Below, one piece after another: positions 3,944-42,741 of a stretch of DNA of 64,000 bases. The stretch comes from Candidatus Bathyarchaeota archaeon. GTDB lineage: Archaea; Thermoproteota; Bathyarchaeia; 40CM-2-53-6. Both the position numbers and the translations under genes were made by a program. Location: contig CAVPLU010000008.1 of the NCBI GenBank assembly GCA_963706285.1, forward strand, positions 8,435-72,434. The letters are read 5' to 3'. Positions within the stretch are counted from its first letter, which is position 1. Each line of letters starts with the position of its first letter. The notes under the pieces are model-generated. The model did no database searches, was not told the origin of the DNA, and saw only the letters and a program-made list of their open reading frames with translations.

Positions 3944-6342
3944 CCTTCGAAGCCTATACAAAAAGAGAAAACGCTCCTTTCCCCCTTTTCGAGATCGATC
4001 TTGGCAAATCAGACGAGAAACAACTCCTCACTCTGAGTGCCGAACTTGGCCTTGCTCTTTCTCTGAACGAGATGAAAGCGCTCAAGGCGTATTTCAGGAA
4101 ACTTGGCCGGAATCCAACAGACATTGAGCTTCAAACCTTCGGACAGACATGGTCGGAGCATTGTATTCACAAGACGTTCAAAGGAGAAGTAGTCACGCCA
4201 GACGGCCGCGTATTGGCTAAGAACCTGTTCAACACGTTCATCGCAAAACCTGTCAAAGAGCTTAAGCCGGCATGGTGCCTCGACACTTTTCGAGACAATG
4301 CAGGAATTGTTTCCTTCGAGAGAAGGAAAGGCGTCTCTTACGGAATCGCGGTGAAAGTTGAGACGCACAATCATCCGTCAGCCATTGAGCCTTTCGGAGG
4401 CGCCGCAACAGGAACCGGTGGCGTGATCCGTGACATCCTCGCGGTCTGGGCTAAACCAATCGCGTGCACTGACGTGCTGTGTTTCGGACCATTGGATTTC
4501 GATAAGAATGCCCTGCCTAAGGGAGTGAATCATCCTACCTACATATTCGACGGCGTCGTCGCTGGCGTAGGAGCATATGGGAACAACATGGGCATTCCGA
4601 CCGTTAACGGAGCGATCTTGTTTGACGAAAGCTACGTGGGTAATGTAGTCGTGTATTGCGGATGCGTCGGCATACTTCCAATGAACAGGTTCGTCAGGAA
4701 CACAAAACCCGGCGACGTGGTTCTCCTTGTTGGAGGCAAGACGGGAAGAGATGGGATCCATGGAGTAACATTTGCTTCCGCAGAGTTGGCTGAAAGCTCC
4801 GAAGTGACATCTCTCTCCGCAGTTCAGGTTCCGAATCCAATAGAAGAAGAGAAACTGAAACGAGCAATCCTAGAAATCAGAGACCGCAAACTCGCTTCCG
4901 GAATCACGGATCTTGGAGGCGGAGGTCTCTCATGCGCTGTCAGCGAGATGGCTCACAGATCCAACTGCGGCGCTGACGTGGAACTTGAGCATGTTCCTCT
5001 GAAAGAGACAGTTCCACCTATGGTGCCATGGGAGATCTGGGTTTCCGAGGCTCAAGAGAGGATGCTGCTCTCTGTTCCGGAGAGGAAACTCAGCAAGGCT
5101 CTCAGCGTCTTCGAAAGTGAAGACGTTGAAGCAACTGTGATGGGGAGATTTACTCGCGGTCGAACATTACACGTTCGTCATCAGAGCATTCCTGTCCTCA
5201 AGATTGATCTTGGCTTTCTATTCTCGCCTCCAATGGTAAGGAGAACCGCCCAAGTCAATGAAGCCCAGACAGTCGAGCCGAAATTTGATCCGCCAGACGA
5301 TCTTGAGGAGACAATCACTGGACTTCTCTCAACGCCAAACATCACAACCCGAGAACCGGTCATTCGCACATACGATCATGAGGTGCAGGGCAACACTGTG
5401 CTCAAGCCTCTTCAGGGAGCTTTCGCTGCGCCAAACGATGCTGCCGTCTTGAAGCCTCTGTCTGACTCGTATAGGGGAGTTGTAATTTCGTGCGGGATCA
5501 ATCCGAACTATGGAAAGCAGGATTCGTACTGGATGGCTGGCTCCGTCATTGACGAAGCGTTGAGAAACAATGTCGCAGTCGGAGGGAGAAGGATAGCTCT
5601 GCTCGACAACTTCACGTGGGGAAGCCCAGAGAAGCCTGACAGGATGGGAAGCCTTCTGCAGGCGTGTCGCGGATGCTACGACTTCGCAAAAGGTTACGGA
5701 ACTCCATTCGTTTCTGGAAAAGACAGCCTCTACAATGAGTCGCCGCTCGGCTCAGTAACGCCCACGCTCCTAGTGACCGCTCTCGGCATAATCCCCGACG
5801 TTCGCCAAGCGGTTTCTGTCGAACTGAAGAAGCCAGGCAACCACGTCTACTTGATCGGCGCAACTCATCCTGAACTGGGCGGTTCCGAATACTTCCGACT
5901 CAGAGGGATTACAGGAGGATCTGTTCCAAGAGTCAGGCTTCCGATCGCGAGAAGAGTGATGCAAACCGTCACTTCTGCGATCGACAGCGGATGTGTCAGG
6001 TCATGCCATGACCTCTCAGAGGGAGGCCTAGCAGTTGCCGCAGCCGAGATGACTCTCGGAACGAAGTATGGCCTAGATCTCGATCTAGATTTAGTTCCAT
6101 CTCCAGAGCAGCTTCGAGATGATGTGGTTCTATTTTCCGAGTCAAACACTAGATTCCTCGTTGAGGTCGACTCTAAGAAAGTACGAAAATTCGAGAGCCT
6201 GACGCGGAAGGTTCCGTGCAGCATGTTGGGTGAAGTCCGAAGGGACGAACGCTTCATCATCCGAAGAGGAAACCGTGTCGCAGTAAGCATGGATGTCGTG
6301 GACTTGCGTGCCGCTTGGAAGAAACCTATCGAGGCGACGTGA
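3940..6342 (+). CDS. purL: FGAM synthase II (PurL)
   Basis: 800 aa with VETHNHPSAIEPFGGAATGTGG and DLGGGGLSCA motifs. ATGA overlap with the purS stop. Confidence 0.95.
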   Translation: MTFEAYTKRENAPFPLFEIDLGKSDEKQLLTLSAELGLALSLNEMKALKAYFRKLGRNPTDIELQTFGQTWSEHCIHKTFKGEVVTPDGRVLAKNLFNTFIAKPVKELKPAWCLDTFRDNAGIVSFERRKGVSYGIAVKVETHNHPSAIEPFGGAATGTGGVIRDILAVWAKPIACTDVLCFGPLDFDKNALPKGVNHPTYIFDGVVAGVGAYGNNMGIPTVNGAILFDESYVGNVVVYCGCVGILPMNRFVRNTKPGDVVLLVGGKTGRDGIHGVTFASAELAESSEVTSLSAVQVPNPIEEEKLKRAILEIRDRKLASGITDLGGGGLSCAVSEMAHRSNCGADVELEHVPLKETVPPMVPWEIWVSEAQERMLLSVPERKLSKALSVFESEDVEATVMGRFTRGRTLHVRHQSIPVLKIDLGFLFSPPMVRRTAQVNEAQTVEPKFDPPDDLEETITGLLSTPNITTREPVIRTYDHEVQGNTVLKPLQGAFAAPNDAAVLKPLSDSYRGVVISCGINPNYGKQDSYWMAGSVIDEALRNNVAVGGRRIALLDNFTWGSPEKPDRMGSLLQACRGCYDFAKGYGTPFVSGKDSLYNESPLGSVTPTLLVTALGIIPDVRQAVSVELKKPGNHVYLIGATHPELGGSEYFRLRGITGGSVPRVRLPIARRVMQTVTSAIDSGCVRSCHDLSEGGLAVAAAEMTLGTKYGLDLDLDLVPSPEQLRDDVVLFSESNTRFLVEVDSKKVRKFESLTRKVPCSMLGEVRRDERFIIRRGNRVAVSMDVVDLRAAWKKPIEAT

Positions 6343-7179
6343 ATGCGGCGAAAGTCCATCCGCATATGCATCATGCGAGCTTGTGGCACCAATTGTGACG
6401 AAGAGACGCGAGCCGCCTTTGACGCGCTTGGAGTCAAAGCAGACATCGTTCACGTGAAGAGCGCAATTACGAATGGAGACCTACTCGACTATCATGGCAT
6501 AGTTTTTCCTGGCGGATTCGCTTACGGCGACTACGTGCGAGCTGGAGCGATTTGGGCAGATGTCCTTCGTGATGAGCTTGGAGAATCGCTACGACAATTC
6601 GCAGACGCGGGTCGTCCGATCCTAGGCATATGTAACGGCTTCCAAGTTCTGGTCGAGACAGGTCTGCTTCCGGGATTGGAGAATGCGGACGGTTCACTAG
6701 ACGCGGCGTTGGCGGGCAATGTGCCGGCTGGCTATCGTTGCACTTGGGTCTCATCGGATGATTATTTGTACGTTAGACAGGACAATTCCGGCAAATGCTT
6801 GTTCACTCGAGGAATCCCCAAAGCGAGTCTACTACGTCTGCCGATCGCGCATGCTGAAGGAAGGCTTCTTTTCCCGAGAGGAAGAGAGAAGGAATGCTTC
6901 CAGAAGCTTTTGGATAATGACCAGGTAGTATTCAGATTCGCCAAATCCGATGGAAAACTCGCCGAGGGGCTTTTCCCTCATAATCCGAATGGATCGATGT
7001 ATGATATTGCTGGAATATGCAACGACACCGGAACGGTGATGGGGTTGATGCCCCATCCTGAGAGAGCGTTCTTCGGGTACCAGCTGCCCGACTGGACGCA
7101 GTTGTCAAAAGTTCCTGAATACGCTGATGGCAAGCCGATCTTCGAATCTATGGTCAACCACATCGTCAAAATGGGCTGA
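6343..7179 (+). CDS. purQ: FGAM synthase I, glutamine amidotransferase (PurQ)
   Basis: 278 aa with the GICNGFQVL nucleophile elbow and MPHPERAF. It starts immediately after the purL stop. Confidence 0.94.
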   Translation: MRRKSIRICIMRACGTNCDEETRAAFDALGVKADIVHVKSAITNGDLLDYHGIVFPGGFAYGDYVRAGAIWADVLRDELGESLRQFADAGRPILGICNGFQVLVETGLLPGLENADGSLDAALAGNVPAGYRCTWVSSDDYLYVRQDNSGKCLFTRGIPKASLLRLPIAHAEGRLLFPRGREKECFQKLLDNDQVVFRFAKSDGKLAEGLFPHNPNGSMYDIAGICNDTGTVMGLMPHPERAFFGYQLPDWTQLSKVPEYADGKPIFESMVNHIVKMG

Positions 7180-7265
7180 CCTAGCTCGTTCCATTTTCCA
7201 GATTACATGCCGTGTATCAAGCAGAACTTCATGCAACTGATCGAATTCCGAACATGATCTGCTCT

Positions 7266-34140: not shown

Positions 34141-35566
34141 CTAGCCTCCCAGTTTGACTTTTCGAAGACGTATTGGTGGTCCCCCATGCCATACTGGAGC
34201 TCCTTGCATTGGTTCGCCTTTTCCACATGTGGCCGCCTCGTATTCCACGGTCTTTCCAACAGCATCCACACTGCCGTAGAGTCCCGGTGTAGTGATCTCG
34301 AGAATCGGGTTCCTTAGGGGGCTTGTGATCTCTCCTTTCTCGATCAGGTATGCTTCGAGTCCTACGTATCTCTGATTGTAGCGTCTGTCGTCAATATTCC
34401 ATTCCATGAATGTCTTGATGAAAACGCCCTTGCTGATGTCTTCGATCAACTCTTCGTCAGTGTGGTCGCCTGGAAGCATGTACGTGTTCGCCATTCTGAT
34501 GATAGGTTCCCTATCGTAGCTTACGGCTCTAGCCGCTCCGTTGCTGCTCACACCGAGTTCTGCAGCTGTTTCGCGATTCTGTAAGAATCCTGCGATAATT
34601 CCATTCTTGATTAGAGTTCTTCTGCTTGCTCGCACGCCCTCTTCATCGTACTGGTAGAAGCCGTACGAGTTTGGAACGGTAGGGTCATCTACAACGGTGA
34701 CGGCTTCCGTGCCAATTCGATGCCCGATCATGTCGGGCTTGATGTAGGATTCTCCAGCCTGGGCGGCTTCTCTGCCTAAGATTCTGTCTGCTTCCTGAGG
34801 ATGTCCACAGGATTCGTGGCAAATGATGCCAGTGACCTCCGATCCGAGAACTAGATCCATCTCCTCTTGGGCGGCTGGTTTTGCTTCACGAAGAATCTTC
34901 CCCAGCGTTGCCGCCTCTTCGGAAACATACTTCGAGGGATTCCATTCCTCGAGTCGTTCCCATCCGCCCGTCTCGCCTTTCTCGCCGATTCTCTGGATCG
35001 TTCCTTTCCCGGGCACAGTTGCAGTAAGGAGAAACAGCAAACCGATCCTGGAGGCTACCCCGTGAATCTTCGAGCCTTCGCTGTTAGCGAAGTATCGGTC
35101 GGTCATGTCGTCCATCAGAACAAGCGTCCGAGAAGGAAGATCTCACCTTCACAACATCAGGGCTTAGGTTCTTTTCGATGTCTTCGAGGACCCGTACTTT
35201 CTCCTCGATCGTAATATCGAGAAGTGATCTTCGCGCTTTCGTCTCCCAGTTTGCCTGCTCTGCCTTCTCCTCTGACAGGCGTATTGGTTTGGTGACAAGT
35301 CTCTTCGACGCTTTCGCCGTTCTGCATGCGATATCAACAACTTCACTCAAAGATTCCCTAGAGAGATCGTTTGTGGACGCAAATCCGAGCGCACCATCGA
35401 CAAGCACGCGGACCCCGATACCTTCCGCCTTGGCCAGCTGAACCGGCTCTGGCGCTCCGTTGGTTAGAGTGACTCCGCTGCCCGAGTCGATGTGAAGCCT
35501 TGCTTCAGCATATTCCACTCCTCTCGCAGAAGCAGAATCAACCGCATAGCGAACAAGTTCTTCCAT
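34141..35566 (-). pseudogene. tldD: TldD metalloprotease split by one +1 frame break (~35125)
   Basis: ORF 35084-35566 is the TldD N-terminus and ORF 34141-35115 is the remainder with the HESCGHPQEAD metal site. Homology is continuous as ...VVKVRSSFS(D/T)LVLMDDMTDRYFANSEG... if one nt is skipped. Confidence 0.85.
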
Positions 35567-35719: not shown

Positions 35720-36217
35720 CTAGTATCTTCCTCGGCGACCGCCGCCGTATCCTCTGCCTCGTCCTCTGTCTCCGTAGCCTTCGTCCCGGTTTCTAGGTCT
35801 GAAACTCGGGTATCTTCGCCTTTCAGGCATGGGGAACTCCTTGTTGGAAAGGTTGTTGTCAGCATTGACGTTCTCAATCGGCGGAGCGCCGGTCTCCAAC
35901 GAACCGTAGCGGCCTATGTTTAGCCGCATCGATCCGCGGAAGAGCGAGATGTAGCCGTTCTTGACGTTTATCGTGTCATTCTCATTGACTTTGTCGATGT
36001 TGTCGTCCCACAAGGTGAGGTAGACCGAGCCGGTCTCATCTCCGACGAGAGCATCTACAACTCGATGCGTCGAGCCATCTCTCCGAGAAACAGTCTCGCG
36101 GGCTTGGCCCTTTGAGACTACCTTCACGGTAACGTTCACTTGTCTGGATTCTGGGCCAAGGCCCTCGACCTTGACGTTCACAGCAGCAGGTGGCTGTCCT
36201 TCTCCTTCCGTTGACAT
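35720..36217 (-). CDS. ssb: Single-OB-fold ssDNA-binding protein with RGG-rich C-terminal tail
   Basis: 165 aa with an OB core (VNVTVKVVS...GDETGSVYLTLWDD...FRGSMRLNIG), as in crenarchaeal/thaumarchaeal SSBs. The tail is GYGDRGRGRGYGGGRRGRY. Confidence 0.72.
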   Translation of the reverse strand: MSTEGEGQPPAAVNVKVEGLGPESRQVNVTVKVVSKGQARETVSRRDGSTHRVVDALVGDETGSVYLTLWDDNIDKVNENDTINVKNGYISLFRGSMRLNIGRYGSLETGAPPIENVNADNNLSNKEFPMPERRRYPSFRPRNRDEGYGDRGRGRGYGGGRRGRY

Positions 36218-36453
36218 CTACTTCACACTCGGCTTAACATATCCGACAATAGGTCGTATCTTAAGCATTGCGATTCCATCCAAGGGAGTGGGACAAGTAG
36301 CAGCAAGTGTGAGACCGGACAAGTGTCTAGACCAAAAACCGTCCTGAGAATAGCTGCTTTCGCCCTTTCTACAACACATACATAATCCAACCCGCCCTCT
36401 TGTTGGTACAGGCAAGCTGAGAAGACCCACGATAATAATCGGACGGAGCATGT

Positions 36454-37458
36454 TTGAATAAGCGACTGGATGAATTGCTGCTCACAACTACGGACACCGG
36501 TAGCCTGCCGATCTTCGACGATTTCAATGGTGACCGAACGAACTTCGAGGGGGCGATACTCGACAAGCTTTCGGTAGGCTTGGACTATCCATGCTATCCT
36601 CAGCTTCAAGGCTCGCCCTCCGATCCCACGAATATGGGTCTACAGTTTCTGATCCCGCTCTCCAAACTTGAGCCTAAGATTCAGATCAGAGGAGAGGAGG
36701 CTACGCTTCTGTCAGACGAGATCAAGTCTCCGTCTGAGCCGATCGGCGTGGAACGAGCGGAGCACTATGTGACGTTTCTTCGTGAGCACGATCTTCTCTC
36801 TAGGGTAAAGGGTCTGAAGGCCTGTATTACTGGTCCTTTCACACTTGCCAGTTATCTCAACAGAAGGAACCTGATGACATGTGGCACGTCAAAGCCCGAA
36901 GTCGTCAAAGTCCTCACCGAGGCTCTCAGCAACTCATGCAAACGCCTCAACGAGCTTGGATTCGACTTGGTCAACGTGGACGAGCCTTTCCTCTCAGTAA
37001 TGCTGGGACGCAAAGTGCTGTTCAAGTACGACGAGAAATTCGTCGTTGAGATGCTTGACACCATGATAGGTGAAATATCGGGGTTCTCCGCGATTCATGT
37101 CTGTGGCACGATAACTCCATTGGTCAAGAAGGTTCTACTGGAAAGCAAAGTCAACATCGTCGACCACGAGTTCGCAGGTTCTCCCAATAATCTACATGCA
37201 TACACCAGAGATGAGCTAGAAGGCTCCGGCAAGTTCCTTGCCTATGGCTGTGTTTCCTCAGTGAAGCCTCAAGTGGAGACCGTAGAAGAGATCTCAGCCT
37301 CGATACGCAATGCAATGAAGACCTTCGGTTCGCGGATAATCGTGAAGCCTGACTGTGGTTTTGGAGGCATGTTCGGCGTCTCAGGTGCCTATGAGGCTGT
37401 TCTGAAGAAACTTGAGAATATGGTAAAGGCGGCTCGAATGGTTGCGGAGTCAGGTTAA
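36454..37458 (+). CDS. Core-MetE-like (cobalamin-independent methionine synthase catalytic-domain-only) methyltransferase
   Basis: 334 aa with UROD/MetE-like TIM barrel motifs NVDEPFL, IHVCG and KPDCGFGGM (His/Cys/Cys Zn ligand pattern). TTG start. Confidence 0.68.
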   Translation: MNKRLDELLLTTTDTGSLPIFDDFNGDRTNFEGAILDKLSVGLDYPCYPQLQGSPSDPTNMGLQFLIPLSKLEPKIQIRGEEATLLSDEIKSPSEPIGVERAEHYVTFLREHDLLSRVKGLKACITGPFTLASYLNRRNLMTCGTSKPEVVKVLTEALSNSCKRLNELGFDLVNVDEPFLSVMLGRKVLFKYDEKFVVEMLDTMIGEISGFSAIHVCGTITPLVKKVLLESKVNIVDHEFAGSPNNLHAYTRDELEGSGKFLAYGCVSSVKPQVETVEEISASIRNAMKTFGSRIIVKPDCGFGGMFGVSGAYEAVLKKLENMVKAARMVAESG

Positions 37459-37602
37459 GCGTATCTGAGTCAGGAACTTGTACACTATCAAGGCGACAAG
37501 GAAGATCAAGTAGAATCTGAGGAAAATAAGTGCGGCTCTGACTGTTCTAGTTGTTTTCACTCGTGGCACATTTGCTCACTCTCACATCTGAGTTTTCTCT
37601 TG

Positions 37603-38673
37603 CTACTCTCCCGCTAGGAACACGTCTTTCTCTCTAATCACGCCGACGATCTTGTTCGATTCATCGGTGATGGGGATTGCTCTGAAACGATACTTCCGGA
37701 ATAGTGATTCGATGTCTCCTCGCATGGTAGTGGGTGCGACTGATACAACGTTCTTAGTCATGATGTCCTCGAGCTTCCTCGTAGGATCTGCCTGCAAGAG
37801 TTCGTTGATGTCTATGACGCCTCTCAGATTTTTCTCATCGTCGACAACGTAGATGTACATCGTGACATCGCAGCTGCGTGCTTCTTGTCGGAATCTCGTG
37901 AAAGCTTCTTCAACCGGTAGGTCGCCTGGGAATCCCAGGAAGCAATGCATGGCAAGAGTCGACGCTGGAACATCGTGTTGACTGAGGAGCTGATGGACTT
38001 TGGAAGCAACATCTCCTTTCAGTATCTTCAGGAATTCCTCAGAATCGTCTCGTGGAAGAATCGAGATTATGTTAGCGATTTCAGCGGGGGATAGATGAGC
38101 GAAGATTTGAGCGGCTCGTTCCGTGCTTGTTGAGGCTAGGATTTCTCTCTGGACTCTTGGTTCCGTTGCGTCAAGAGCGCCAGCGGCAACTCCACTATCC
38201 AGTGTGCTGAAGATGTGGATTCTCTCTTCATGGCTGAGTTCCTCAAGTATGTCAGCCAAGTCTTCAGGGTGAATGTCTTTGAGTCCGTCTCTTGTTATTG
38301 TGAGTTTCACGTCGCCCTTGGTGCCTGTGAGGTCTGTCGGCAAGGATTGTACATACCGCCATGGGATGATATCATCACATGAACCGTTTTCAAGAACAGA
38401 CTTGACAATTCTACCAAGTCCCAATCGGCGCATGAATGCGTGTCGGCCTACATCCGCTCCGACAACAAACAGCTTACTTTCCACGAAAAGAAGTTGTACG
38501 TCGTAGACAACTTCTACATCGAATCCTTCTGTGTCAAGGATTCTCTTATCAAGAATCTTATCTCTAAGCAGGAGCTGATCATTGCCGTGTTTGATCTCAG
38601 GATACTTGCCTTCAGGGGGATCTTGCACGAGAGTCTTCTCGGTCGTCACGCTAGACAACATTACTCCAAGCAA
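37603..38673 (-). CDS. Soluble PRC-barrel + MgtE N-domain + CBS-pair protein (no membrane domain)
   Basis: The sequence runs ILDKRILDTEGFDVEVVYDV (PRC-like), DLADILEELSHEERIHIFSTL...AEIANIISILP (MgtE_N), then two CBS motifs. The ORF is in frame with ORF 38677-38901 across a single TAA. Confidence 0.75.
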   Translation of the reverse strand: MLGVMLSSVTTEKTLVQDPPEGKYPEIKHGNDQLLLRDKILDKRILDTEGFDVEVVYDVQLLFVESKLFVVGADVGRHAFMRRLGLGRIVKSVLENGSCDDIIPWRYVQSLPTDLTGTKGDVKLTITRDGLKDIHPEDLADILEELSHEERIHIFSTLDSGVAAGALDATEPRVQREILASTSTERAAQIFAHLSPAEIANIISILPRDDSEEFLKILKGDVASKVHQLLSQHDVPASTLAMHCFLGFPGDLPVEEAFTRFRQEARSCDVTMYIYVVDDEKNLRGVIDINELLQADPTRKLEDIMTKNVVSVAPTTMRGDIESLFRKYRFRAIPITDESNKIVGVIREKDVFLAGE

Positions 38674-38676
38674 TGT

Positions 38677-38901
38677 TTAGGGAGGACGACCCAACGAGCG
38701 TTCGATGATCAGGCTTGTCACTTCAGCGTAGTGTGGATCGTCTCTGATGACTAGATCTTTCAGCTTGCCAATCGTGATGCCGCTCTGAGTTTTCACTTTC
38801 TTGTCAAGGATCTCAGTGAGGAGGAGATATCGTGCAGCCTTGTTTTCTCCGAGGGACGCCTTCTGAATGTACTCTCTGATCTGACTTGACTTCGTCGACA
38901 C
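38677..38901 (-). CDS. Small PRC-barrel-like protein (or N-terminal part of the downstream gene)
   Basis: 74 aa, ILDKKVKTQSGITIGKLKDLVIRDDPHYAEVTSLIIE. Same frame as 37603-38673, separated by TAA 38677-38679 plus one codon. Confidence 0.5.
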   Translation of the reverse strand: MSTKSSQIREYIQKASLGENKAARYLLLTEILDKKVKTQSGITIGKLKDLVIRDDPHYAEVTSLIIERSLGRPP

Positions 38902-38954
38902 TAATTCCCGCCTCGAGGTGTTCCTGCTCTGCTGGATCAGTCAACTGACGGGCC

Positions 38955-40235
38955 CTACCCTCCTAATAAGTTCGGAAAGATCGTGGAGATGCCGTACAGA
39001 GACGAAACCGCGATCACAGCTACCACGATTGCCCAGTCTATTACGTTCTGAAACCTAGTGTTTACGTACGGCCCCATCAGTTCTTTCTGGTTCAACAGTA
39101 GAATCAAGAACACCAGAGCGGCAGGAAGTAGAGTCACAGCTATGATCTGCACAAAGAGCGTGATCAACACAAACGGTGCGTTGGGAATGAGCACTATGGC
39201 CCCGGCAAGCGCCACATTGAGGAAGTAGAACAGGTAGAACCAAGGAGAGCTCTTCACTTTCACGTTGAGAGTGTGCGCCCATCCGAAGACTTCTCCAAAC
39301 GCCCATGACGACGACAAAGAAATACAGATCGCGCCCAGAAGCCCCGCGTCGAAGAGACCAATGGCAAACAGCGCTCCCGCATATTGCCCCGCAAACGGGA
39401 CTAGCGCAAGGGCAGCTTCAGACGCTTCTGTGATGTTCAGGCCGATTACGTGGAGAGTTGATCCGGTTGCGATCATTATGAATGCGGCCCCTAGCCCTGT
39501 TAGAACCGAGCCGAGCGCGGTATCGATTTTAGCATACGGGATGTCCTTTTCGTCAAGTTCTTTGTCGACGACTGCACTTTGCTGGAAGAAGAGCATCCAG
39601 GGGGCTATTGTGGTTCCGATATTCGCCATTATCAATGTCAGCAAAGGGGTAGTGAGGCCCCCGGAGAATGTCGGAAGAAAAATGTCGTGAGCGATCACGT
39701 GCCAATCGGGCTTTGCTAGGAAGGCGGCAGGTATGTACACTAGGTTGAGGATACAGAAGACCATTGTTATTCTCTCAAAGGTCCAGTATGTCCCCGAGGA
39801 TACGAGTAAGGTTAGGAAGACGACTGCTGCCACGATCGTCAATATGGGAGGTACTCCAAAGATCTTTGCCGCCGCGACCATGCCAATGAATTCAGTCACA
39901 ATCGTTAGGAAGTTAACGAATGTCAGATCTATGAGCGAGAACCAGCCCCAAAACGGGCCGAATCCGTCGAAGATCGCCTCCGCATGTCCTCTCTTCGTTA
40001 CCGCTCCCAGCCGTACAGTCATCTCTTGGACAAAGTAGGCGAGTATGCAGAAGACTATGATCAGCCAGACGAGATTGAACCCGTAGCGTGAACCTGTGAT
40101 CGCATAGGTGGTAATTCCACCAGCGTCGTTGTCTGCAACCATCACTATGATGCCCGGTCCTGCGATAGCGGAGAAAATGGCAAGCCGTTTCCAGATGCGT
40201 CTATAGAGGTAATACGCTCGCGGCAACAACTTCAT
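38955..40235 (-). CDS. NRAMP/SLC11-family transporter with NRMT-like (putative Mg2+) binding-site substitutions
   Basis: 426 aa and about 11 TM. The TM1 motif is VADNDAGGITT where MntH has DPGN (Asn->Gly). The TM6 motif is IGTTIAPWM where MntH has GATVMPH (Ala->Thr, Met->Ala, His->Trp). Confidence 0.85.
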   Translation of the reverse strand: MKLLPRAYYLYRRIWKRLAIFSAIAGPGIIVMVADNDAGGITTYAITGSRYGFNLVWLIIVFCILAYFVQEMTVRLGAVTKRGHAEAIFDGFGPFWGWFSLIDLTFVNFLTIVTEFIGMVAAAKIFGVPPILTIVAAVVFLTLLVSSGTYWTFERITMVFCILNLVYIPAAFLAKPDWHVIAHDIFLPTFSGGLTTPLLTLIMANIGTTIAPWMLFFQQSAVVDKELDEKDIPYAKIDTALGSVLTGLGAAFIMIATGSTLHVIGLNITEASEAALALVPFAGQYAGALFAIGLFDAGLLGAICISLSSSWAFGEVFGWAHTLNVKVKSSPWFYLFYFLNVALAGAIVLIPNAPFVLITLFVQIIAVTLLPAALVFLILLLNQKELMGPYVNTRFQNVIDWAIVVAVIAVSSLYGISTIFPNLLGG

Positions 40236-40369
40236 TCTACTTCACCGCCATGCAATCTCAGTCGGATTCTTCTCAGGCCAGTCTGCTCTCTCTTCTCGTA
40301 ATGTCGCAACTGCCGCAACAGTATCGGAATTAAGGTTTGCTACGGTTCAAAACTTGCGATCGTTTTCGT

Positions 40370-41632
40370 TCATGAAGCGATTGCTGGCAGAGTGTTCATT
40401 GCGTAGGGCATCAGGAGAATTGAGGCGTCTTTTCCACGCGAGCGCCAGGCATCCTCCAGCACTTCTTGTGGCTTCTTGCAGGTCTTCAGGATGATGGAGT
40501 TTGTCTGTAACTTGTTTGATGCAAGAATGATCTCAGCTCGTCTGGCGATCTTGCTGAGGGCGAAAGCTTTGTGAGCGCCCAGAATGAATTGCCTGCTAAG
40601 TTTCTCTCTTATCTCGTCAAGACTGGAGGTGGTCGTCATCCAGTTCTCGAAGGTGGTGTTTCCGAAGCCTTCGTTGCATTCGGCAACTAGTATTATTGTG
40701 CCGCCATCCTTGACGGCGTGGGAGGCGTTCTCTATCGCCTTGTGCGCTTGATAGAGGTTGATATCTCTTGGATATCCACCAGCGCTTGCAAGCACAATAT
40801 CCGCCGGTTCTTTGATGGGTACCTTCTCTTGGTCATCAACGATTTTCGACGCGGCTCGTTGCGCAGCTATTGGATCTCCGGCGAATCCGCTGATGATTCG
40901 ATTTGACTCGTCTAGGACAACGTTAACGACGTATCGTAGTCCCGTCAGTCGTCCTGCTTCTTCGAAGTCTTCACGAACCGGGTTGGAATCGATGACTCCT
41001 GGTTCTGCGTTGGGAAGAGTCATGAGGCTGTGATTTCTCTCGATCGTCTCTTTGCCCGCGAGACCAGGCACCACTGCCTTGTAGCCGCCTGTGTAGCCGG
41101 CGAAATAGTGCACATCGACGTTTCCGATGGCAAGAGCAAAATCTGCTTCGAGAAGAAGCGGGTTGACAGATACTCGTGTGCCGCGGGTGGTGGTTCCGAT
41201 GTATTGCACGGAATCCACTGTGTGATCGATGACTTTCGGAATTGAAGTCGAGTACGAGCCTAGAAGAACGCGTTTCTCTGCGGCTGTATGGCCCCTATGT
41301 GTTCCTGTTCCGATGAGGACTCGCATGTTGTCGCGGGGAACGCCTGCTGCCTTGAACGATCGCATGACATGGGGGAGGATTGTCCGTGTCGGGCAAGGCC
41401 TCGTGATGTCACTCACTACAATCGCGACTTTGTCCTTACGGTCAAGAAGTTTCTGGAGAGGTTCTGCGCCTCTAGGCGCAGCTAATGCTTGAGGAACGCT
41501 TGGGCCACGGTGGACTGAAGGTCTCGGTCTCACGATCTCGAGTAGACGACTCTTCGGGATCTCAAGTTTGATTGAACCTTTTCCGTACCTGAGAGAAACC
41601 TGCAACCGACAGCCCTCACAGTGGTCGGTCAT
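40370..41632 (-). CDS. larA: LarA-family (nickel-pincer-dependent lactate racemase-like) protein
   Basis: VAIVVSDITRPCPT, IGTGTHRGHT and HYFAGYTGGYKAVVPG motifs (DUF2088 N-domain). ATG 41632. Confidence 0.83.
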   Translation of the reverse strand: MTDHCEGCRLQVSLRYGKGSIKLEIPKSRLLEIVRPRPSVHRGPSVPQALAAPRGAEPLQKLLDRKDKVAIVVSDITRPCPTRTILPHVMRSFKAAGVPRDNMRVLIGTGTHRGHTAAEKRVLLGSYSTSIPKVIDHTVDSVQYIGTTTRGTRVSVNPLLLEADFALAIGNVDVHYFAGYTGGYKAVVPGLAGKETIERNHSLMTLPNAEPGVIDSNPVREDFEEAGRLTGLRYVVNVVLDESNRIISGFAGDPIAAQRAASKIVDDQEKVPIKEPADIVLASAGGYPRDINLYQAHKAIENASHAVKDGGTIILVAECNEGFGNTTFENWMTTTSSLDEIREKLSRQFILGAHKAFALSKIARRAEIILASNKLQTNSIILKTCKKPQEVLEDAWRSRGKDASILLMPYAMNTLPAIAS

Positions 41633-41730
41633 GCTCAAAGCGTCTCATAGAAGTTTTGTTGAAGCGCAGCTTCGCAAAATCGTTAACTAGAGGCAACCGA
41701 AGTAGCAGAGACTGAGCGGGGGTACCCGAG

Positions 41731-41753
41731 GCCAGCCGTCGTGCTGGCGGGAA
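41731..41753 (+). other. tRNA intron 1 (23 nt) in the D-loop
   Basis: Bulge-helix-bulge fold: H = CCCG/CGGG, bulges AG|G and AA|C, outer helix CCAGC/GCTGG. The predicted cuts restore a 13-nt D-loop, GAGCCAGGTCTAA. Confidence 0.8.
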
Positions 41754-41770
41754 CCAGGTCTAAGGGGTAG

Positions 41771-41791
41771 AAGCGTCCAGACGCTGCCTCA
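41771..41791 (+). other. tRNA intron 2 (21 nt) inside the anticodon stem (between nt 29 and 30)
   Basis: BHB-like fold: H = GGGT/GCCT (2 GC + 2 GU), bulges AG|A and CA|G, outer helix AGCGT/ACGCT. The predicted cuts create a perfect TAGGC/GCCTA anticodon stem. Confidence 0.75.
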
Positions 41792-42741
41792 GCTTCAGGA
41801 GCCTATGGCGTAGGCCTTCGGGGGTTCGAATCCCCCCTCCCGCACCACTCTTGAGTGACGGCAAGATCTAATCACTGCAAAGTGGCCCATGAAATAGATG
41901 CAAGATTCATGATGTGCGCCACAGGAATGTCGTATGGGAGAATTCCTTAGTCGATTCGCCATATCATGGCCCAGAAAGCGGAGAAGGTTCCAACAACAAG
42001 AAGAGACAAGTGTGAACGAGCAGCATCAGAAAAATCACGGGCCTGACTTCAGTCTAGGTAAATGATATTTAGCACGCGAGAATGAGCTACTATTGCTGAG
42101 ACATGTCCACACGTCCGGAAAGAAGACTTGAATACGAACTGGAACAGCTGCTCCTACACATCGTGCAACATGAGCCTTCCAACATCGGTAAACGAACTTT
42201 AGTCGCAGCAATTGCTAGATGATGTAAGATCCCCTGATCAGATTCGAAGAAAGAGAGCTGAAGACTCGGCCAAGAAGGATCTGGGAATTGGGAGTTTTGG
42301 GAATTCTTAGCAACTATGCGTCAGAATCGAACTCATGTAGGCAACTCTAGATTCGATTGATATTTGAATCGTGGCCTGATGTGTTATGTCTAGAAGAAGA
42401 GCAAGAAGAAGGAGAAGAATACGAGCTAGAAGAACACAGCAGAAGAGCAGGCGAGCAAGGAGCCAACCTGAAAAGGAAAGAAGAACAGGGCACCGGCGTG
42501 CCAAAAGATAATAGCATCATTTGCATCTTTACAATTACCCGCAGCTTGCATCTTGCTTGTCTCAATGTTGATCAGTCGGTGGCGGATTCGCACAGTCCAA
42601 GGCAGCCATCGGTCAAACACCTGCCCGACATGGACAACGCATCGGTCGGATGTTGCTGGCGGAATCCTTCTGGTGCAGGAGATGAGTACCCACCGAAACT
42701 TTCATAGGCCGAAGCCGCACATCGGGAGCGGACAATCAGTC

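Follow-up and report, generated by a model that had tools for sequence, protein, structure and literature searches.

NRMTs, the NRAMP-related Mg2+ transporters, form the fourth known Mg2+ route into prokaryotic cells. The clade is defined by a DxxG motif in alpha-1 and a TxxA/T motif in alpha-6, where classical NRAMPs carry DxxN-AxxM, and the proton-pathway residues are lost in its members (Ramanadane et al. 2022, PMC8806188). The NRMT of Eggerthella lenta, EleNRMT, carries both Mg2+ and Mn2+ in an uncoupled manner (PMC8806188), and the lack of proton coupling raises the question of how the flux is limited. Mg2+ transport by this group, under the name NrmT, was shown by Shin et al. (2014, PLoS Genet 10:e1004429, PMC4072509). 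In that paper, most NrmT genes adjoin a gene for the MgtE N-terminal cytoplasmic domain (Fig. S5), the neighboring MgtE fragment is speculated to give cytoplasmic feedback regulation, and the MgtE-like partner gene of C. acetobutylicum is split in two. The 2014 study did not settle what the linked fragment does, nor does the NRMT literature searched; the partner is not discussed in Ramanadane 2022, Cellier 2022, or a 2026 review.

The window analyzed here, a 64,000-nucleotide (nt) stretch from a Candidatus Bathyarchaeota archaeon (contig CAVPLU010000008.1), carries an archaeal copy of this already described gene pair, a transporter gene (nrmT) followed by a gene for an MgtE-like partner, together with a third gene for a small membrane protein. 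The original prediction, made from the sequence alone, had presented the coupling of a Mg-type SLC11 transporter to a detached MgtE sensor as undescribed. The interpretation is sound, although both the arrangement and the proposed role were already published by Shin et al. (2014). No description was found of the small membrane protein gene, the one element of the locus that appears to be new. We propose, with a probability of about 60%, that the locus is a three-gene cation-uptake module in which nrmT, the PRC-MgtE_N-CBS partner, and the small membrane protein, in this order, would serve as transporter, sensor, and anchor.

Putative metal site and relationships of the transporter

The nrmT gene (38955 to 40235, minus strand) encodes a predicted 426-amino-acid (aa) divalent cation transporter of the NRAMP-related NRMT clade, with a LeuT-type Nramp domain (PF01566) spanning residues 41 to 393 (E=8.8e-79). 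The closest solved structure is that of EleNRMT (7QIA; E=1e-72, 249 bits). Nramp and MntH structures matched far more weakly (1e-23 for a clade B Nramp and about 1e-20 for DraNramp, all at 87 bits or less), and the score of 115.6 bits falls far short of the NCBI MntH cut-off of 430 bits. The classical DPGN motif is replaced by D37-A-G-G40, and AxxMPH is replaced by T208-T-I-A211-P-W213. The strings NDAGGI and IGTTIAPWM are letter-identical in the window transporter and EleNRMT. As the alignment is also gapless at both motifs, D37, G40, T208, and A211 can be equated with EleNRMT D55, G58, T224, and A227, and the equivalence extends to E115 (E133) and Q363 (Q379). The putative site residues are D37, G40, E115, T208, A211, W213, and Q363, with the alpha-3 glutamate (E115) retained and the first alpha-6b histidine replaced by tryptophan (W213), both as in EleNRMT.

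Phylogenetic reconstruction placed the window transporter, 21 related-locus proteins, and EleNRMT in one clade with 100% bootstrap support, apart from DraNramp and BfraNramp, in a simple distance-based tree (bootstrapped neighbor joining) with these two outgroup sequences only. Identity is 36.8% to EleNRMT and 22 to 25% to DraNramp and BfraNramp. By signature, by similarity to EleNRMT, and by tree placement, the window transporter is NRMT-type at the level of its sequence. The original prediction had described an NRAMP homologue, aligned without gaps to MntH around both motifs, with DPGN changed to DAGG and AxxMPH to TTIAPW, which the PF01566 match and the EleNRMT alignment bear out. The substitutions it had named as defining NRMTs are correct and correspond to the motif of PMC8806188, and the phylogeny it had proposed as a check groups the protein with EleNRMT. 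A scan of related loci, limited to one genome per species, recovered 80 loci with a related transporter from Bathyarchaeia (the nearest, 81 to 82% identical), methanogens, Thermoplasmata, Nitrospirota, Desulfobacterota, Acidobacteriota, Chlorobia, Planctomycetota, and others. The NRMT site signature is retained across this set, save in a subgroup at about 45% identity with an altered site.

The signature leaves room for a different substrate, and it is conceivable, though distinctly unlikely in our view, that the transporter mainly imports Mn2+ or another transition metal and that the MgtE-like partner has some other regulatory purpose. EleNRMT transports Mn2+ besides Mg2+ (PMC8806188), and the NrmT of Acidobacterium capsulatum, which has an MgtE-like neighbor, rescued a Mn2+-import mutant fully and a Mg2+ mutant only partially, at millimolar Mg2+, and so behaved as a Mn2+ transporter (PMC4072509). 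The site itself speaks against this alternative, as the soft methionine ligand that selects transition metals is absent and the site is identical to that of the Mg2+-transporting EleNRMT. Regulatory RNA bears on both sides. An M-box Mg2+ riboswitch (115.9 bits) was found in locus L040 (5187 to 5366, plus strand) upstream of a gene for a 60%-identical NRMT, with no intervening gene, which again points away from a transition metal. The same element occurs in just 1 of the 22 related loci scanned, the other 21 being without it, and none is present in the window, where a search of positions 36000 to 42500 for RNA elements gave no M-box (RF00380) and no other Rfam match up to E=1 save one chance miRNA match. 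M-box control would not be expected in Archaea, so its absence from the window says little as to the metal. Promoter and terminator scans of the window, which used a bacterial sigma-70 model, performed no better than on shuffled sequence.

A partner gene related to the MgtE sensor

The partner gene follows the transporter on the same strand after a gap of 53 nt. It comprises 432 codons (37603 to 38901, minus strand) for a PRC barrel, a second beta domain, MgtE_N, and a CBS pair, in a single frame that is interrupted in the assembly by one internal TAA. The linkage is conserved. Of the 61 loci that have downstream sequence and a transporter more than 50% identical, 60 carry the partner immediately after the transporter and co-oriented with it, as located by a profile search, and only L063 lacks it; the remaining loci above 50% identity are cut by a contig end. 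The original prediction had called for a survey of NRMT-type genes beside MgtE_N/CBS genes, and in these loci the association is strongly conserved. In the Eggerthellaceae, the loci for close EleNRMT homologues have the partner ahead of the transporter, with 3 nt between the two (L083, 3636 to 4994; L085, 3641 to 4993). A candidate transporter-partner fusion in L061, an 863-codon frame, did not hold up, as the transporter terminates at 5403 and high G+C content accounts for the long frame.

Two open reading frames (ORFs) of the window, one of 74 aa (38677 to 38901) and one of 356 aa (37603 to 38673), make up the partner gene. They share the same phase, and between them stand one TAA and one codon. 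Alignment to the DNA of two close relatives, L081 (93.7% identical) and L082 (96%), both with an intact frame at this site, revealed that the window lacks one base between 38679 and 38678 and carries a surplus T at 38653. The disrupted stretch (38653 to 38679, minus strand) is out of frame and opens with the TAA at 38677 to 38679. After the residues GRPP, nine window codons read a stop followed by TLLGVMLS where the relatives have LNIAWNNVI, and the +1 frame of the window reads LNIAWSNVV. Homologues of the partner are single proteins, mostly of 432 aa and up to 99% identical, with PF05239, PF03448, and PF00571.

The break is most likely an assembly error, because both close relatives are intact there and a nearby gene for a TldD-type metallopeptidase (34141 to 35566, minus strand) is also frameshifted. 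In the latter, an extra base at 35143 produces overlapping frames of 160 aa and 324 aa, and the gene is whole (474 aa) in L082. The window has three frame-breaking insertions or deletions (indels) in 6.5 kb relative to its relatives, one of them in the TldD gene, and L082 carries frame-breaking indels of its own in the partner gene. Over these 6.5 kb of mostly coding DNA, the window and L082 differ by 29 indels, a pattern that leads us to suspect consensus errors. On this evidence from sequence comparison, the organism probably makes one intact 432-aa partner. The contrary case, in which the break is real and leaves either a 74-aa N-terminal fragment with a protein of about 351 to 356 aa restarted at TTG 38673 or ATG 38662, or else a pseudogene, is unlikely. 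The +1 insertion does bring the downstream sequence back into frame, an in-frame TTG and an in-frame ATG lie within 15 nt past the stop, and the C. acetobutylicum partner is naturally split, as reported by Shin et al. (2014, PMC4072509). Two-ORF partners are also seen in three other loci, at differing positions (L024, 7513 to 8800; L031, 7247 to 8627; L082, 125 to 1468). The cut in the window, however, passes through the PRC barrel, which Pfam assigns to residues 28 to 92 of the intact relative, instead of a domain boundary, and it would be a real break beside an L081 and an L082 intact at the same site, in a region whose frameshifted TldD gene is whole in L082 and whose indel density suggests consensus errors.

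With the partner read as one interrupted gene, the small PRC-barrel ORF that the original prediction had listed separately is not a gene of its own but the product of a disrupted frame, as indicated by the single TAA and the single-protein homologues. The 356-aa protein of that prediction does have MgtE_N and a CBS pair and is soluble and co-oriented downstream of the transporter; it is the C-terminal part of the 432-codon gene and not a separate one. The MgtE_N match (PF03448) in this frame has an E value of 4e-19, and the two CBS domains (PF00571) match at E=2e-18. No membrane domain was detected in the window partner, which terminates 4 residues past the second CBS domain (CBS2), and both the plug helix and the C-terminal five-helix pore (PF01769) of MgtE are absent. 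On these grounds, the partner counts as an MgtE sensor relative; it is not an MgtE channel. The PRC profile (PF05239) scored 22.8 and 33.5 bits on intact relatives (cut-off, 21.2), at about residues 27 to 96, and the 74-aa window fragment alone matched no Pfam family.

An AlphaFold2 model of an intact relative (mean predicted local distance difference test score [pLDDT], 77) comprises a beta domain (residues 23 to 92), a second beta domain (about 112 to 180), a helical domain (212 to 307), and the CBS pair (313 to 427). A second PRC barrel arising by internal repeat was considered and set aside, as the evidence for it was weak (hhalign E=0.066). The best Foldseek matches of the model are MgtE cytosolic domains (2YVY, 2OUX, and 8GPV; E about 1e-19). 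For Thermus MgtE (2YVY), the relationship is seen both in sequence (E=1.7e-25) and in structure (Foldseek E=2e-19, with a TM-score of 0.64 to 0.71 on the target). Many other structural neighbors are nucleotide-bound CBS proteins, such as AcuB and CBSX.

The Mg2+ ligands of the Thermus MgtE cytosolic domain are E59, D91, D95, D226, D247, and D250, with E258 and D259 in the plug helix (PMC5882242). The corresponding window positions read E59 to G, D91 to A, D95 to N, D226 to R, and D250 to L. D247 is the only one of the six cytosolic ligands retained in the window partner, and it is invariant in the family. The D95-equivalent position is Asp in most relatives and Asn in the window. The plug-helix ligands have no counterpart, since the partner ends there. 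With the fold of the MgtE sensor and most of its ligands changed, identical Mg2+ sites should not be assumed. The original prediction had identified the protein as the Mg2+-sensing part of MgtE without its channel, of which the homology to the MgtE cytosolic domain stands and the assumption of sensing is weakened by the retention of D247 only.

The same changes allow for a partner that is not a Mg2+-sensing gate, acting instead as an energy or nucleotide reporter through its CBS pair or as a factor for assembly or stability of the transporter. Adenine nucleotides are common CBS-pair ligands, the structural neighbors include the nucleotide-bound AcuB and CBSX, and NrmT functions without the partner in heterologous hosts (Shin et al. 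2014, PMC4072509). We nevertheless consider such a role rather improbable. The role of MgtE_N is specifically in regulating Mg2+ channels, and the domain here is highly acidic (net charge of -10 across 99 residues), D247 is invariant, and most relatives have an Asp at the D95 equivalent.

The partner family also includes longer proteins. Of 140 cluster representatives, the most similar ones whose sequence extends to the end of CBS2, 13 measure about 600 aa and have, after the complete domain set of the partner (PRC, second beta domain, MgtE_N, and CBS), a C-terminal membrane domain of about 200 aa (P0403, P0412, P0413, P0421, P0430, P0432, P0446, P0468, P0484, P0491, P0496, P0501, and P0512). 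Judged by domain content, these look like full-length MgtE-type channels with an N-terminal PRC barrel, so the partner family seems to have arisen by truncation within an MgtE lineage that bears a PRC barrel. Separately, a Lys/Arg-rich polybasic tail of 17 to 54 residues takes the place of an end right behind CBS2 in 24 of the 140 representatives (P0391, P0408, P0416, P0419, P0436, P0442, and others) and might provide an alternative membrane attachment.

The small membrane protein gene

In many of the related loci, the transporter and the partner are separated by 150 to 220 nt, within which a conserved frame encodes a 55- to 70-aa protein containing a single hydrophobic helix. These intergenic frames served to build a profile, which, with one iteration, was searched against 20,224 six-frame ORF segments. 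It identified a homologue in 77 of 81 sources, always on the transporter strand, and the other four end at a contig edge before the expected place. The profile is specific, with all matches among the 20,224 segments lying in the module save one weak match (E=0.008). In the window, it matched (hidden Markov model E=6e-18) a gene for a small single-pass membrane protein of 39 aa, (M)PRVKTTRTVRAALIFLRFYLIFLVALIVYKFLTQIRLT, at 37450 to 37569 on the minus strand. The gene starts with a GTG at 37569, 33 nt past the partner stop codon, and has its own stop at 37450 to 37452. It falls just beyond the coordinates of the original prediction, in which it had been missed.

The position of the gene varies. 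In the window, the Bathyarchaeia relative, and the TxxT subgroup, it follows the partner, and in the partner-less Acidobacteriota subgroup it comes directly after the transporter. The conserved core of the protein is P-R-[IV]-x-[MT]-T-x-x-x-[KR]-x-x-L-x-x-L-R-x-Y-L-x-x-L-x-x-L-x-x-Y-K-F, and its basic N-terminal flank suggests, by the positive-inside rule, that the N terminus is cytoplasmic. Between the window and L001, 17 codon changes are synonymous and 5 nonsynonymous. An identical 39-aa sequence is present in a public protein collection, and the L082 copy has been called with an ATG start; the records say "hypothetical protein." The small protein matched no Pfam or NCBIfam family, and we found no mention of it in the available part of Shin et al. 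(2014) or in the other literature searched. An origin as a remnant of the first transmembrane helix of MgtE is unsupported, with no Pfam match, including to the MgtE domain, at E values up to 10.

The Eggerthellaceae loci, of which only two are distinct, yielded no separate small frame in the profile search. Their partner is longer (450 aa), and its C terminus consists of a plug-like acidic segment followed by basic residues and a single hydrophobic helix (...DAIEEDVSGDKTKTTVLKAVGIALAAVLFLALYTLVLFQIMGF); the partner ends at most 16 residues past CBS2 in the 54 other loci in which its ORF reaches the C terminus. The separate small gene and the fused partner helix, seen in these two Eggerthellaceae loci, are complementary states with the same N-in orientation, which hints at joint action of the small protein and the partner. 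Homology between the small protein and the fused helix was not accepted, as their similarity is not significant (E=2.5) and only position and orientation agree. A motif common to the partner N terminus of Bathyarchaeia (SQIREYIQK) and to long small proteins (KIREINxKY) was treated as chance, because it is absent from the other groups in which the small gene follows the partner.

It is possible, and we put this forward tentatively, that NRMTs are three-part complexes in which the microprotein is an obligatory membrane subunit docking the sensor onto the transporter, with the helix fused to the sensor instead in Eggerthellaceae. If so, this would explain why sensor-only coexpression in 2014 had no effect, and the NRMT functional and structural work considered here would have used the transporter without one or both of its partners.

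The subgroup at about 45% identity (L064 to L071, L073 to L075, L077, and L080, with the transporter at about 6001 to 7260) consists mostly of Acidobacteriota and has no partner within 6 kb, even at E values up to 10. Its site reads D-G/A-P-S and A-T-V-T, with Asn at the Q363 position, and most of its small proteins have a His/Cys-rich N terminus, e.g., KHHCPRRRLT. To judge from these sequences, the changed site and the His/Cys-rich small protein suggest a different metal or sensing mode.

Two further genes flank the locus. The end of a convergent MetE-like gene, at 37458, runs a few bases into the end of the small gene. On the other side, 134 nt separate the transporter from a co-oriented LarA-like gene upstream (40370 to 41638, minus strand), which among NCBIfam models scored best against LarAH6, a nickel-dependent malate racemase, though below the cut-off (460 against 500 bits). 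Membership of the LarA-like gene in the module was rejected, as its adjacency is common only to one Bathyarchaeia relative, L002.

The proposed module and known systems

From the homologies, the site signature, the conserved linkage, and the presence of the small gene, we infer the substrate, the physical contact among the three proteins, and the gating as follows. Given a widened DxxG/TxxA site like that of EleNRMT, the transporter most likely imports largely hydrated Mg2+, and probably Mn2+ too. The membrane potential would drive import, with no coupling to protons. A brake is needed on an uncoupled Mg2+ pathway, and we propose the partner, which is homologous to the sensor domain that closes the MgtE channel, as an inhibitor. 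Most likely, a cytoplasmic signal (Mg2+, ATP, or Mg-ATP via the CBS pair) binds to it, and it would inhibit the transporter once supply is sufficient. For the small protein, the most likely place is in the membrane next to the transporter, where it would help to dock the partner.

Several observations weigh against this proposal. The transporter is only 36.8% identical to EleNRMT, which itself also carries Mn2+, and four DAGG-type loci have the small gene yet no partner within 6 kb. Most MgtE ligand positions are changed in the window partner, the plug-helix ligands are missing, the break in its gene could be real, and the likeness of the small protein to the Eggerthellaceae helix falls short of significance. 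In Shin et al. (2014, PMC4072509), moreover, besides the stronger Mn2+ rescue by A. capsulatum NrmT, coexpression of this transporter with its partner did not improve rescue, in the only coexpression test.

The window adds no new kind of system, and the module is conserved across many bacterial and archaeal phyla. What the analysis adds is the PRC barrel of the sensor, the kinship of the sensor with full-length PRC-MgtE proteins, and a small-protein gene that accompanies the transporter wherever flanking sequence suffices. Compared with the described NRMT/NrmT proteins (CabNRMT, Ca_c0685; EleNRMT, 7QIA), the window transporter belongs to the same Pfam family and clade and has the same signature and alpha-1 and alpha-6 motifs. 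The alpha-3 Glu, the alpha-10 Gln, the replacement of the first alpha-6b His by Trp, and an MgtE-like neighbor gene are likewise common to them. It differs in coming from an archaeon (nearest genomes, Bathyarchaeia), in lacking an M-box, and in that its substrate is predicted. The gene order also differs, being transporter, partner, and small gene in the window and partner followed by transporter in Eggerthellaceae.

The mgtE-nramp operon of Shin et al. (2014) has the same adjacent homologue of the MgtE cytoplasmic domain, with the same proposed feedback role. The available part of that paper (PMC4072509) mentions neither the PRC barrel of the partner nor the small membrane protein gene, and its coexpression test comprised transporter and partner only. 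With the MgtE channel of Thermus thermophilus (2YVX/2YVY), the partner has the N domain and the CBS pair in common. It lacks the plug helix and the five-helix pore, adds an N-terminal PRC barrel and a second beta domain, and has most of the Mg2+ ligands changed.

Small membrane proteins that modulate cation transporters include MgtS, MgtR, and MgtU, which act with MgtA, MgtC, and MgtB, and KdpF in KdpFABC. Like these, the protein described here is a single-pass protein within the 30- to 60-aa range, is encoded with a cation transporter, and plausibly binds it in the membrane. It has no sequence relationship to any of them and, not being restricted to enterobacteria, is conserved across many bacterial and archaeal phyla.

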